Shown: positions 1-64,000, counted from the first letter of the stretch. The stretch: 64,000 bases of DNA from an uncultured Coriobacteriia bacterium (GCA_963726345.1 CAVSCC010000006.1:53090-117089); one strand, 5' to 3'. The notes: a model not told the origin generated them from the sequence alone. A program made the numbers and translations.

Positions 1-873
1 AGGTGGTTGACGAGCTGCCCCGACGGGTCGGCGTAGATGTTGTCGATGCCGAGAAGCCCCTCGAGCTTGCGCAGGCCGTCCTCGGTGGCGGCAATGGTGC
101 GCTTGGACTCGTCGAGCTCGAAGTCGATCGTCGGGGCGCAGGCGCGGAACGACCTTGGCGAACTGCTTGTAGGTGTCGGCGGACTTGGTGCCGGCACCCG
201 AGATGATGAGCGGGGTCCTGGCCTCGTCGATCAGGATGGAGTCCACCTCGTCGACGATGGCGAAGTGGTGGCCGCGCTGCACGCGCTCCTCGGGACGTAC
301 CACCATGTTGTCGCGCAGGTAGTCGAAGCCGAACTCGGCGTTGGTGCCGTAGGTGACGTCGGCTGCGTAGGCAGGGATGCGCTCGAACGGGTCCATCTGG
401 GACTGGATCATGCCGACTTCCATGCCGAGGAAGCGGTAGATCCGGCCCATCCACTCGCTGTCGCGCTTGGCCAGATAGTCGTTGACCGTGACCACGTGGA
501 CGCCCTCGCCGGGCAGTGCGTTGAGGTAGCCCGCAAGCGTGGAGACGAGGGTCTTGCCTTCGCCGGTCTTCATCTCCGCGATCTGGCCCGCGTTGAGTAC
601 CATGCCGCCGATGAGCTGCACGTCGAAGTGACGCATGCCCAGCACTCGTACCGACGCCTCACGCGTGACGGCGAAGGCCTCGGGAAGCAGGTCATCGAGC
701 GTTTCGCCGTCTTCAAGACGCTGCCGAAACTCGACGGTCTTGGCGGCTAGCTGGGTGTCGGAGAGCGCCTGCATCTGGGGCTCAAGTGCGTTGATGCCTT
801 CCAGGCGATTCTCGAACACACGAAGCTGCTTGCCCTCACCCATAGTGAGGAGCTTCGTGAGGAAATTGGCCAT
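1..873 (-). CDS. secA: Preprotein translocase ATPase SecA, 5' part (gene runs off the left edge); 1 frame break near 125-135
   Basis: This gene is absent from the ORF track because it has no stop inside the window. Manual reverse translation from the ATG at 873..871 (GAGGTG RBS upstream) gives [39 protein letters not shown]...[75 protein letters not shown]...[22 protein letters not shown], the SecA motor N-terminus. After ...FAKVVPRL the conserved sequence ([42 protein letters not shown]) continues in another frame. Confidence 0.93.
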
Positions 874-922
874 GAGTATCTACACCTCGAATGGTGGGTT
901 TTGACGGGGCTGAAGTAGCCCG

Positions 923-931
923 ATTCTAGCA
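923..931 (-). promoter_or_regulatory. Candidate extended -10 promoter element for secA (TGcTAGAAT)
   Basis: The reverse complement of 923-931 reads TGCTAGAAT, about 45 nt upstream of the secA ATG. I saw no convincing -35 element. Confidence 0.3.
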
Positions 932-1189
932 CAGGGGGTGCCGCTTCCCGCTCGAGCGAGGCACGCTCACACAATGCACAGAAGTGCCGATGCCTGGCCC
1001 GCGTGCGAGGACCTATCGGGCCCAGCCGACAGCTGTGGCGGCTCGTTTTCGGTGCCCCTCAGGAACTCCCGCTCCTCACCTCAATGAGCCTTGCAGCCGC
1101 CGCTTGCGACGCCCGGTTGTCCGGGAGCCCGACAAGCCCCGCACCGATCGGCAGAATCGAACCGACCTGCGAAGAGCGTAGGCCGCGGA

Positions 1190-1211
1190 CCTTACCGAGA
1201 CCTTACCGAGA
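1190..1211. repeat. Perfect 11-bp tandem duplication (ccttaccgaga x2)
   Basis: Read directly: 1190-1200 and 1201-1211 are identical. On the minus strand the stop codon of the ORF ending at 1192 lies inside the second copy. Confidence 0.9.
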
Positions 1212-61089: not shown

Positions 61090-62009
61090 TCAGAGGAGTC
61101 GGGCGCCCTCGCCGATCGATGCGGACCGCCTGCGGGGCGCGGCGCGTCGGGAGCGCACGCGCGCCCACGGCCGCGCGCTCTGCGACCTCGACCGCGAGCG
61201 CGTAGGCGGCCTCGTCGGTGTCGGCGGCGACCAGGCCGATGACCGTCGGCCCGGCACCGGAGAGCGCCACGCCGGCGGCGCCCGCGCTGCGCAGGATGTC
61301 GTGGACGGCCCGCAGGTCGCCGACGGCCGAGGCGCGGTACGGCTCGTGCAGGCGGTCGGCGAGCGCCGCGCCGAGAAGCTCGGGCCGGCCGGTCGCGATC
61401 GACGCCGCCAGCAGTCCGGCGTGCGCGACGTTGAAGGCGGCGTCCGCGTGCGGAACGTCCGTCGGCAGCATCGCGCGAGCCTTCGAGGTCGCGAGCTCGC
61501 CGGTCGCCGACGACCACGACCGCAGCCAGTCCGCGAGCCGGCTCGAAGCGAGCGGTTCTCGGCCGACCGGCGTCGGTCCAGCACACCGTGAAGCCGCCGA
61601 GAATCGCCGCGGCGGCGTTGTCGGGATGGCCCTCGATGCCCGCGGCGAGCTCCAGCACGCGATCGCTCCCGGGGTCCTCGGCGAGCAGCCGGAACCCCAG
61701 CAGCAGCCCGCCGACGATCGCCGAGGACGACGAGCCGAGCCCGTTGCCGAGCGGGATGCGGTTGACGCACTTCACGCGCGCAGCTGCGTCCGGCTGACCG
61801 GCGACCTCGAAGGCGACCTTCATCGCGCGGACGACCTGGTTGCGCTCGTCGGTGGCGAGCACGCCCGCGCCCTCGCCCTCGACCTCGACGCTCCAGCGCT
61901 CGGCCAGCTCGGCCTCGAACTCGTTGTGGAGGTCGAGCGCCAGGCCGAAGGAGTCGAAGCCCGGGCCGAGGTTCGCCGAGGTGGCGGGTACTGAGACGCC
62001 GGCTCCCAC
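61090..62009 (-). CDS. thrB: Homoserine kinase; at least 3 frame breaks
   Basis: The ORF reads VSVPATSANLGPGFDSFGLALD, then the GHMP motif NRIPLGNGLGSSSSAIVGG, then GIEGHPDNAAAAILGG. The next frame reads MLPTDVPHADAAFNVAHAGLLAASI...LHEPYRA...SGAGPTVIGL. The ORF track fuses it with hom (61090..63300). Confidence 0.9.
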
Positions 62010-62012
62010 GGA

Positions 62013-63300
62013 CTAGAGCTCCTCGACGCGGATGACCGCGGCGATGCTCGTCACCACGTCGAGCGACTCGATCTCGGCCAGCGCCGAGCGCACGTCGGCC
62101 TCGCGAGCGGTGTGCGTCACGTAGACGATCTGCGCGACGCCGCCCTCGGCGCGCTTCTGGATGACGGAGCCGATCGAGACGCCGTGCGCGCCGAACACCG
62201 TGGCGACCGCGGCGAGCACGCCGGGCTGGTCGGCGACGGCGAGGCGCACGTAGTACTCGGTCTCGAGCTGCGCGATGTCGCGGACCGGCGAGCGTCTCGG
62301 TGCAGGTGCAGCCGACGAGCGGCGCGCACCCGGTCTGGATGCGGCGCGCCTCCTCGATCAGGTCGCCGACGACCGCCGAGGCGGCCGGCAGCGAGCCGGC
62401 GCCCTCGCCGAAGAACATCGTCTCGCCCACCGCGTCGCCGACCACGTAGATGGCGTTGTAGACGCCGTTGACGCTGGCGAGCGGGTGGGCGTTGGGGATC
62501 ATGGTGGGATGCACGCGCACGTCGATGCCCTCGGGAGTGCGACGCCCGATCGCGAGAAGCTTGATGGTGTAGCCCATCTCGGCGGCGTAGGCGATGTCCT
62601 CGGGAGCGAGTCCGCGGATTCCCTCGGCGGGGACCTGGCTCATCACCACGCGGCTGTTGAACGCGATGGAGCACAGGATCGCGATCTTGGCGGCGGCGTC
62701 GAGGCCGTCGACGTCGGCGGTCGGGTCGGCCTCCGCGAAGCCCTTGGCCTGCGCCTCGGCGAGCGCGGTCGCGTAGTCGAGACCGTCGGAGGCCATGCGC
62801 GTGAGCATGTAGTTGGTGGTGCCGTTCACGATGCCCATGACCGTCTGGATCTCGTTGCTGGTCAGCGAGTGCTTGAGCGGGCCGATGATCGGGATGCCGC
62901 CGCCGACGCTCGCCTCGAAGAGGACGTCGACGCCGTTGGCCTCGGCCGCCTGCATGACCTCTTCGCCGTGGCTCGCGAGCAGCGCCTTGTTGGCGGTGAC
63001 GACGCTCTTGCCGGAGTTCAGCGCCGCAAGCACGACCTCGCGCGCGACACCGGTCCCGCCGATGAGCTCGATGACGATGTCGAGCGAGTCGTCGGCGATC
63101 ACGTCGTGCCAGTCGTCCGAGCACTTCTCGGCGGGAAGGCCGAGATCGGCGAAGCGCTCGGTGGTGCGGTCGGCGAAGCGCGCCAGCTCGATGTCGACGC
63201 CCGCGCGGCTGCGGAAGTCCTCGCCGTGGCGCGTCAGAATCTCGACGACGCCGGATCCAACGGTTCCCAGTCCGACCAGGCCGACTCTGATGGTGCGCAT
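62013..63300 (-). CDS. hom: Homoserine dehydrogenase with C-terminal ACT domain; 1 frame break near 62285
   Basis: The ORF reads MRTIRVGLVGLGTVGSGVVEIL...VVTANKALLA...LFEASVGGGIPII...GIVNGTTNYMLT...DPTADVDGLDAAAKIAIL.... The ACT fragment (62013..62249) reads YVRLAVADQPGVLAAVATVFGAHGVSIGSVIQ. A GGAGGA RBS precedes the ATG. Confidence 0.93.
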
Positions 63301-63563
63301 GACGATTCCTCCGCGTTCCGTGGCCGCGCACGGAGCGCGCAGCTGCCGGCGACCATTGTAGCCGAGAAGCCCAGACCGCCCGGCGGCGCGCGACCGGACA
63401 CCGTCTCGCGGCTAGTCCGAGACCGCGCCGGGCATGAGAGAAGCCTTACGCCGCTCTCACCCCCGCTCACGTTCGGTGCCGATGGTATGCAAGACAAACG
63501 GCGGGCAGAACGATCACCCACAACAGAGCACGACCCGCCATGACGCACTCTCGGAGGTGCTGC

Positions 63564-64000
63564 ATGAAGAGACGCATCATCGTCCCTGTAGTTGCCGTAG
63601 CGGTATTCGGCCTCATGGTCGGATTCGCTACCGTCGCACAGGCATTCCCCTCGAAGACGGTTGCGTGTGACAACTGCCACAGCGGGGCGAACATCCCCGT
63701 CACCGCGACGGCCGGCGCCACCGTCGGCACGACGGTCACGTACGCGCTTAGCGCCCCAGGTGCAGACGCCATCGCCGTGTTCGACGGCGCCACCAAGGTC
63801 GCCACGCTCGGCGCGTCCGGGCGTTCTCGGCCACGGTCGGCAAGCCCTACGCCGTCTACGCGGTCGCCGGCCCGTCGACGGGTGACGGCATCGGAAGCAC
63901 CCTGTTCACGCCGACCGCTCCCGTCGTCGCCCCCGCGGCCCCCGCTCTCAACGCCACCTACAACACGACCACCGGCAACGTGACCATCACGTGGGCCGCC
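63564..64000 (+). CDS. Secreted protein with an N-terminal CxxCH motif and Ig/FN3-like beta-rich region (partial; runs off the right edge; 1 frame break near 63820)
   Basis: The signal peptide is MKRRIIVPVVAVAVFGLMVGFATVAQA. It is followed by FPSKTVACDNCHSG (a single heme-c type CxxCH), then TATAGATVGTTVTYALSAPGADAIAVFDG.... In the next frame the sequence continues FSATVGKPYAVYAVAGPSTGDGIGSTLFTPTAPVVAPAAPALNATYNTTTGNVTITWAA. Confidence 0.55.

Follow-up and report, generated by a model that had tools for sequence, protein, structure and literature searches.

We examined the reading frames of a 64,000-nt stretch of a contig from an uncultured Coriobacteriia bacterium (GCA_963726345.1, CAVSCC010000006.1:53090-117089), hereafter the window, in which conserved genes are repeatedly broken by small insertions and deletions. 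The window has a GC content of 66%, with a strong periodicity of the G and C content at third codon positions (GC3), and contains, among others, the N-terminal part of secA, hpf, an amino-acid ABC transporter operon, comF, mtnA, ahcY, a polysaccharide locus, murA, the atp genes, glyA, prfA, rho, a gene cluster for cyclic 2,3-diphosphoglycerate, and hom (Table 1). No tRNA gene was found in the 64,000 nt. Proteins encoded on ENA metagenome contigs share 95% identity with the glyA product; the named relatives are uncultured Coriobacteriia. An initial annotation, made from the nucleotide sequence alone, had listed broken frames in conserved and even essential genes, described their distribution as following the local GC content, and suggested as their cause indel errors in the consensus of a long-read assembly, with a hint that the GATC motif might be involved.

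Reading frames broken in 31 genes

At least 94 frame breaks are directly observed in 31 of the 50 assessable genes, corresponding to 1.83 breaks per kb over 51.3 kb of callable coding sequence. A GC3 frame plot displayed many phase switches within what should be single genes. The frame junctions were located by a 7-state Viterbi segmentation, whose codon model came from the atp, glyA, and thyX genes; translations were stitched over direct frame-to-frame junctions and scanned against NCBIfam. A frameshift-aware protein-to-DNA aligner served as an independent test, with references from clean short-read relatives (L085, L005, L006, L007, L008, L013, and L016), among which L085 is the short-read metagenome-assembled genome (MAG) GCA_964521195.1, with identities to the window of 87% in glyA and 92% in AhcY. 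The shift coordinates obtained from several protein references coincide with the Viterbi junctions. A further contig, L087 (contig_9505 of ENA ERZ25039596), is 96.5% identical to the window and is itself error-prone; two of its short gene calls (SBP325 and SBP384), wrong-frame or shadow calls that aligned only with senseless series of shifts and stops, were ignored. We discarded a second codon model, derived from genes of weak codon bias, as it called known genes incorrectly; the regions at 5.3-8.1 kb and 22.4-25.6 kb could therefore be assessed only roughly.

The stitched products each gave one unbroken full-length NCBIfam match crossing the junctions, as seen for SecA (2-283), AhcY (1-416/416), MtnA (9-334/335), TuaD/Ugd (1-426/439), MurA (17-415/419), RF1 (1-347/347), Rho (2-414/415), Hom (2-428/430), and ThrB (3-278/304). 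Single-stretch matches were likewise obtained for the glnQ-like ATPase, both substrate-binding proteins (SBP1 and SBP2), AEC, the WcaI-like glycosyltransferase (GT), LCP, the NDP-sugar dehydrogenase, upp, the dCMP deaminase, wecA, tsaC, prmC, 2-phosphoglycerate kinase (2PGK), and sppA, and the stitched cyclic 2,3-diphosphoglycerate synthetase (cDPGS) matches residues 3-435 of PDB 8ORU. The frameshift-aware aligner adds hpf, comF (5-6 shifts within 680 nt), rpiB, the DUF1385 gene, the permease gene, and one GT4 gene. Stitched profile matches and frameshift-aware alignments together confirm as broken every gene that the initial annotation had named. Its four fused open reading frames (ORFs) also lie where it had placed them, each covering two genes: 9767..11209 spans the glnQ-like ATPase and permease genes, 14882..16249 consists of AEC plus the end of mtnA, 56115..58130 extends from 2PGK into tal, and 61090..63300 stays open in one frame over hom and thrB. 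The long intact blocks that it had recognized hold for atpB-atpC, glyA, thyX and L31, two GT genes, and fabZ, but not for the small atpI-like ORF, where we found a window-specific extra base at 44937.

Table 1. Genes and features of the window with the frame breaks assigned to them. Positions count from the first nucleotide of the window.
Feature	Coordinates	Strand	Frame breaks	Basis and remarks
secA, N-terminal 290 codons	1..874	-	one near 130-150, extra G in CCCGAC[G]ATCGAC	profile 2-283; L087 alignment; three-frame translation
STAND NTPase-TPR-wHTH/BTAD gene, 1073 codons	1325..4550	-	8 (2.5 per kb)	GC 62%
DUF5317 gene	4759..5336	-	2 extra bases (5302, 5273)	GC 59%
378-aa protein gene and HD_5 (HD-GYP-like) gene	5342..7207	-	multiple in each	partial Pfam matches on ORF fragments; L087 protein alignment
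hpf	8997..9549	-	1 extra base near 9073	Pfam C-terminal domain cut at 40/57; two references agree
glnQ-like ATPase and permease with N-terminal domain	9649..11742	-	ATPase 1 near 10020; permease near 11219 and 11283	
SBP1 and SBP2, ABC substrate-binding proteins	11857..13864	-	SBP1 at least 4 (12004, 12440, 12546, 12598); SBP2 3 (13055, 13164, 13705)	
raiA RNA motif	13834-14076	-		RF03072, 160 bits vs gathering 101; model 1-209/209
comF	14140..14817	-	5-6 extra bases (~14260, 14297, 14370, 14408, 14520)	GC 75%; four references agree
AEC, mtnA, ahcY	14885..18457	-	AEC 2 (15620, 15672); mtnA 4 (16259, 16497, 16786, 16897); ahcY 1 (18391); all +1	
antisense shadow ORF of ahcY	17140-18444	+		no Pfam domain in its homologues
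15-kb polysaccharide locus	19400-34100			
GT4 glycosyltransferase	19409..20543	-	1 extra base near 19779	two references
ugd and WcaI-like GT	29878..32368	+	ugd 7 junctions; GT at least 8 junctions	Viterbi; TuaD 1-426/439, WcaI 27-274/411
LCP, NDP-sugar dehydrogenase, fabZ, murA	32531..37920	-	LCP 3 (32948, 33123, 33838); dehydrogenase 2 (34976, 35745); fabZ 0; murA 1 (37089)	
atpC-D-G-A-H-F-E-B	38063..44654	-	0	12 expected at the mean rate
wecA, dCMP deaminase, upp	45104..47372	-	wecA 6; dCMP deaminase 2; upp 1	
glyA	47417..48667	-	intact	
rpiB to rho region	48791..56118	-	rpiB 1; tsaC 1; prmC 7; prfA 1; DUF1385 1; thyX 0; L31 0; rho 1	
ribosomal protein L31	53910-54515	-		Pfam match residues 1-64
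metallophosphoesterase, cDPGS, 2PGK	56905..59871	-	9-10 frame junctions	
sppA, thrB, hom	59992..63304	-	1 each	

Several genes illustrate how the breaks were placed. The spacing of SecA homologs requires the removal of one base at the secA break; the residue spacing was fixed from JGI metagenome SecA relatives, which, at an identity of ≤75%, are too distant for a nucleotide-level comparison. The 1325..4550 gene aligns at 97% amino acid identity with an intact homolog in L087 (P0142, positions 10001-13222), and the frameshift-aware alignment requires six shifts of +1, one of +2, and one of -1. In public records (NCBI and ENA) the same gene appears as two fragments on the window's own contig of 199,119 nt (P0141 and P0143, 436 and 163 amino acids). 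SBP1 may hold up to five further breaks in its N-terminal part, which are less certain, and the break count in the 5342..7207 genes is uncertain because their sole reference, L087, is itself error-prone. The stitched ugd contains one in-frame stop, which may reflect either a wrongly placed junction or a genuine change.

The breaks are distributed non-uniformly (chi2 = 129, 49 degrees of freedom, p = 3.5e-9), as the initial annotation had described. The ugd/WcaI-like GT patch is the densest with about 6 breaks per kb, and an atp block of 6.6 kb without any event has a probability of 6e-6. Gene conservation was considered as a cause of this patchiness and rejected on inspection of the per-gene identities, with no formal test, since atpB, atpE, and atpH are unbroken although divergent.

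Type and sequence context of the breaks

The type of the breaks can be read directly from the alignments. Among 66 events typed against references, 55 (83%) are +1, six are +2, and five are -1; another 28 events, typed by frame phase only, comprise 21 with a net shift of +1 and seven with a net shift of -1. A four-way nucleotide alignment with three relatives similarly contains 29 insertions of 1-2 nt private to the window against 13 private deletions, most of the latter seemingly located in non-coding sequence, judging from the contexts inspected. The break sites show no excess of homopolymers, with a mean run length of 1.77 compared with 1.80 at random positions. Thus, the classical Nanopore signature, in which errors are concentrated in homopolymers, is absent from the window breaks.

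A systematic basecalling or polishing error linked to high GC content or to a methylation motif such as GATC would be one way to account for recurrent breaks. The hand-counted GC values given in the initial annotation (57, 65, 69, and 79%) are exact, and the trend that it had drawn from them exists, although it is weak (Spearman 0.30, p = 0.036; quasi-Poisson p = 0.04): GC content accounts for roughly 9% of the deviance, with clear exceptions at both ends. Two genes of low GC content carry breaks in number, SBP1 (62.5% GC, 7.9 per kb) and the STAND/TPR gene (62%, 2.5 per kb); at high GC content, thrB (75.6%) has 1.1 per kb and MTAP (70.9%) none. We therefore rejected GC content as the driver.

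The hint at GATC rested on two sites, which do exist. At both of them an extra G follows a third-position C and precedes the Ile codon ATC (CCC GAC [G] ATC in secA; ATG CGC [G] ATC at the start of the WcaI-like GT, where the extra base in ATGCGC[G]ATC falls at 31219-31222), so that the insertion creates a GATC. Breaks in general are nevertheless not enriched at this motif: 11 of 84 events (13%) lie within 6 nt of a GATC as compared with 12% expected (p = 0.42), and among the precisely placed breaks the count is 2 of 22. GATC occurs 449 times in the window (7 per kb), against about 200 occurrences predicted from base composition by our own arithmetic, an excess that is probably a codon-usage effect (GAT-C, G-ATC). 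Two breaks fall at GATC sites because the motif is so common. Three break sites in common with L087 (see below) could also be taken as a sign of a systematic error. However, the GATC proximity at expectation despite 7 sites per kb, the lack of a homopolymer excess, the small share of GC in the deviance, and relatives that are 88-90% identical, of equal GC content, and broken in other genes largely refute a GC- or motif-linked error, which we consider very unlikely. The drivers suggested by the initial annotation are not supported.

Relatives, selection, and the inserted bases

Genuine and massive pseudogenisation, as part of genome decay in the lineage, would also produce numerous breaks, and the breaks are truly present in the deposited sequence. 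Yet they affect essential single-copy genes (secA, rho, prfA, and murA), and no premature stops were found inside genes in the reference-guided alignments. Differences from clean relatives fall at codon position 3 in 64% of cases in broken genes, once their frames are restored, and in 62% in intact genes; the non-synonymous codon fractions are 0.35 and 0.40, respectively. These matching substitution patterns indicate that the frames on either side of the shifts are still under purifying selection, so that intact selection is observed directly and is not relaxed across the breaks. All 22 genes of the glyA neighbourhood are intact in the short-read GCA_964521195.1, and full-length reference proteins were obtained from L005, L006, L007, and L013. 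The breaks are largely private to the contig, being singletons in the four-way alignment, and their positions coincide with those of L001, L002, and L003 no more than by chance, with eight coincidences against about four expected by a hand estimate. Together with inserted bases that mimic alternative alleles and the extreme +1 bias (see below), these observations leave pseudogenisation with next to no likelihood.

The uniform +1 direction, along with the three break sites in common with a sister contig, might instead bring to mind programmed +1 frameshifting, transcriptional slippage, or another form of recoding that restores the frames. About 100 sites would have to be recoded, with no common slippery or homopolymer context and at positions that are not conserved, since the relatives read straight through them, and a single gene would carry up to eight shifts. 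We regard general recoding as the most remote of the explanations considered here.

The three common sites deserve separate mention. Near 130 in secA, both the extra base and the sequence are identical in the window and L087; at about 11219 in the permease gene (amino acid 174) the extra base matches and both contigs read GTTCGC; at about 11283 (amino acid 153) the break lies at the same position in L087 with a slightly different local sequence. Over the whole overlap, 6-7 breaks coincide between the window and L087, compared with about three expected by chance according to a hand estimate. It is highly improbable that this lineage genuinely carries the secA site and the two permease sites in its DNA and compensates for them by recoding, as the extra bases resemble merged alleles and the deletion of one base restores the SecA spacing.

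The closest public relatives of the window are contigs of the ENA assemblies ERZ25039459, ERZ25039527, and ERZ25039596. ERZ25039527 corresponds to the Microflora Danica sample MFD04716, and its contig_4525 (549,203 nt) is CAVYQS010000012.1. In the Microflora Danica project, Nanopore reads were assembled with metaFlye in nano-hq mode and polished by a single Medaka round, without any use of short reads for polishing, and a lower coding density is reported for its low-coverage MAGs (PMC12313526). The same group reported that a Nanopore-only consensus requires about 40x coverage for near-finished quality (PMC9262707). The sister contigs L001, L002, L004, and L087 are broken as much as the window or more. 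In L001, 21 of 29 breaks are +1, and in L002, 20 of 27. The atp operon, clean in the window, has 21-25 breaks in L001 and 16 in L002, with atpD and atpA among the broken genes, whereas the wecA/upp/dCMP deaminase region, densely broken in the window, has no breaks in L001 and only two in L002, both in wecA. No more than three shifts are present in L003, a contig of 664 kb from the same sample. L087 is more heavily damaged, its permease having 17 shifts and its SBP2 14. Breakage of this kind thus affects low-coverage contigs throughout the catalogue and is not confined to the window.

The nature of the inserted bases was addressed with 63 private single-base insertions in coding sequence, pooled from the window (18 of the 63) and three Nanopore sister contigs. 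Forty-five of them (71%) adjoin a column that is variable among relatives, compared with 35% expected (p = 4e-9), and in 37 of these 45 (82%) the inserted base equals the alternative allele of the adjoining column, compared with 34% expected (p = 3e-11). Allele-like insertions are thus directly observed, amounting to 10 of 18 in the window, 16 of 25 in L001, and 10 of 19 in L002. When random bases were inserted into the clean L085 and realigned as a control, only 22 of 211 (10%) were allele-like (Fisher p = 7e-14).

These results bear on the simplest version of an assembly artefact, plain stochastic consensus errors in a low-coverage or unpolished long-read assembly, in which the patches follow depth fluctuations on the scale of read length and polymorphism plays no role. 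The kilobase-scale patchiness, the much cleaner longer contig of the same sample, the literature threshold of about 40x for a near-finished Nanopore consensus (PMC9262707), and the roughly 40% of insertions that are not allele-like are all in line with such errors. They would predict an allele match of about 10%, however, while 53-64% is observed, and they do not account for the preference for variable columns (71% vs 35%), the strong +1 bias, or the same extra bases in two independent assemblies. We hold purely stochastic errors to be unlikely, although less so than any of the other alternatives.

We conclude, with a probability of about 0.9, that the breaks do not represent mutations of the organism but arose, mostly at polymorphic sites, as errors in the consensus of a metagenome assembled from long reads, most likely from Nanopore reads alone. 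The attribution to long-read consensus indels in the initial annotation is thereby upheld against pseudogenes and recoding by the private single-base indels, the intact short-read relative, the unrelaxed selection, and the same signature in sister contigs. As the proximate cause we infer mixed-strain pile-ups: the pile of reads would be polymorphic, with co-occurring strains or close relatives mixed; the consensus or polishing step would keep both alleles of a single-nucleotide polymorphism (SNP) side by side instead of choosing one; and keeping both alleles would add one base and shift the frame. Such a process would account for the +1 bias, the missing link to homopolymers or motifs, the broken and clean patches on the kilobase scale, and the few identical breaks in common with a sister contig.

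Several points weigh against this conclusion. Some 40% of the insertions do not resemble an allele and may be ordinary low-depth noise. The alleles were taken from relatives at 87-90% identity and not from the source sample; when the window is compared with L087 alone (96.5% identity), none of 11 single-base extras matches the L087 allele, a comparison with little power. Polymorphism appears better supported as the driver than GC content or GATC, but it is deduced from relatives and not from reads. The weak positive GC trend is left unexplained by errors at polymorphic sites. Finally, the origin of the contig in a Flye/Medaka-type pipeline is presumed.

Other loci, comparable systems, and consequences

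Apart from the frame breaks, the window displays several features of its own. The 8-kb stretch between secA and hpf has a weak codon bias (GC3 about 0.7) and holds the 1325..4550 gene, whose 1073-residue product consists of an N-terminal STAND/AAA NTPase, followed by TPR and a C-terminal wHTH (Trans_reg_C) with BTAD, in an apparently unusual order. In typical SARP/AfsR regulators the domain order is reversed relative to this arrangement. The raiA RNA motif, the sole Rfam match in the window, is located just downstream of comF; hpf, of the raiA family, lies 4.3 kb further, with the amino-acid ABC transporter operon inserted between them. The antisense shadow ORF of ahcY has 20 homologues in the protein collection (P0121-P0140), at most 74% identical and without a Pfam domain, which represent erroneous gene calls on the wrong strand in other assemblies of high GC content.

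The polysaccharide locus comprises several GT4 genes, a Wzz-like gene, a flippase gene, ugd, the WcaI-like GT gene, and LCP. It is missing or replaced in the closest relatives, where, as in L004 and L007, MTAP is found within a few kb of the LCP/NDP-sugar dehydrogenase genes, and it looks like a strain-variable surface-glycan island. The Pfam match of ribosomal protein L31 is followed by a C-terminal extension of about 135 residues devoid of known domains; the protein has 201 residues also in L001 and L003, and 161 in L085. In the cyclic 2,3-diphosphoglycerate cluster, cDPGS matches PDB 8ORU with E = 1e-112 and 2PGK its NCBIfam model with E = 1e-80, with a metallophosphoesterase gene beside them. 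The pathway is known mainly from hyperthermophilic methanogens, and the window belongs to a Coriobacteriia-like MAG.

Among comparable systems, frameshift errors in Nanopore-only MAGs, e.g., those of the Microflora Danica catalogue assembled with metaFlye and Medaka, resemble the window breaks in their 1-bp, gene-fragmenting indels in conserved genes, their dependence on contig and coverage, and the gene calls deposited as fragments; the same signature is present in L001, L002, L004, and L087 from that project. Such frameshifts are usually detected by IDEEL or coding-density tests. Whereas the classical account of them invokes homopolymer deletions, the window has insertions outside homopolymers that are tied to variable sites. 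In the long-read polishing of diploid genomes, collapsed haplotypes lead to consensus errors at heterozygous or polymorphic sites. The window shares with them extra bases equal to the adjacent alternative allele, variable non-homopolymer sites, and kilobase-scale patches; its haplotypes would be co-occurring strains of a soil or sediment metagenome, the polymorphism again being drawn from relatives rather than reads.

Truly pseudogene-rich genomes, such as those of Mycobacterium leprae and recent endosymbionts, combine frameshifts with stops and deletions under relaxed selection, and essential genes are spared. The window likewise has many disrupted frames, without their stops, relaxed selection, or sparing of essential genes. 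The programmed +1 frameshift of prfB (RF2) has the same direction as the window breaks, but it takes place at one conserved position marked by a defined shift motif, unlike the breaks in prfA and 30 other genes at non-conserved positions lacking a motif.

The frame breaks are accordingly not a biological feature but an ordinary artefact, useful for quality control only. The error signature suggests that strain-aware polishing, rather than more depth or homopolymer models, would remove most of the errors, and an extra base equal to the neighbouring alternative allele provides a read-free flag for them. Gene calls from the window contig and its sisters are already present in public protein collections as fragments and shadow ORFs, and inferences on pseudogenes, metabolism, or completeness from such MAGs are unsafe without frameshift-aware annotation. 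As for the organism itself, it almost certainly carries intact secA, rho, prfA, and murA, together with the rest of the genes found broken here.

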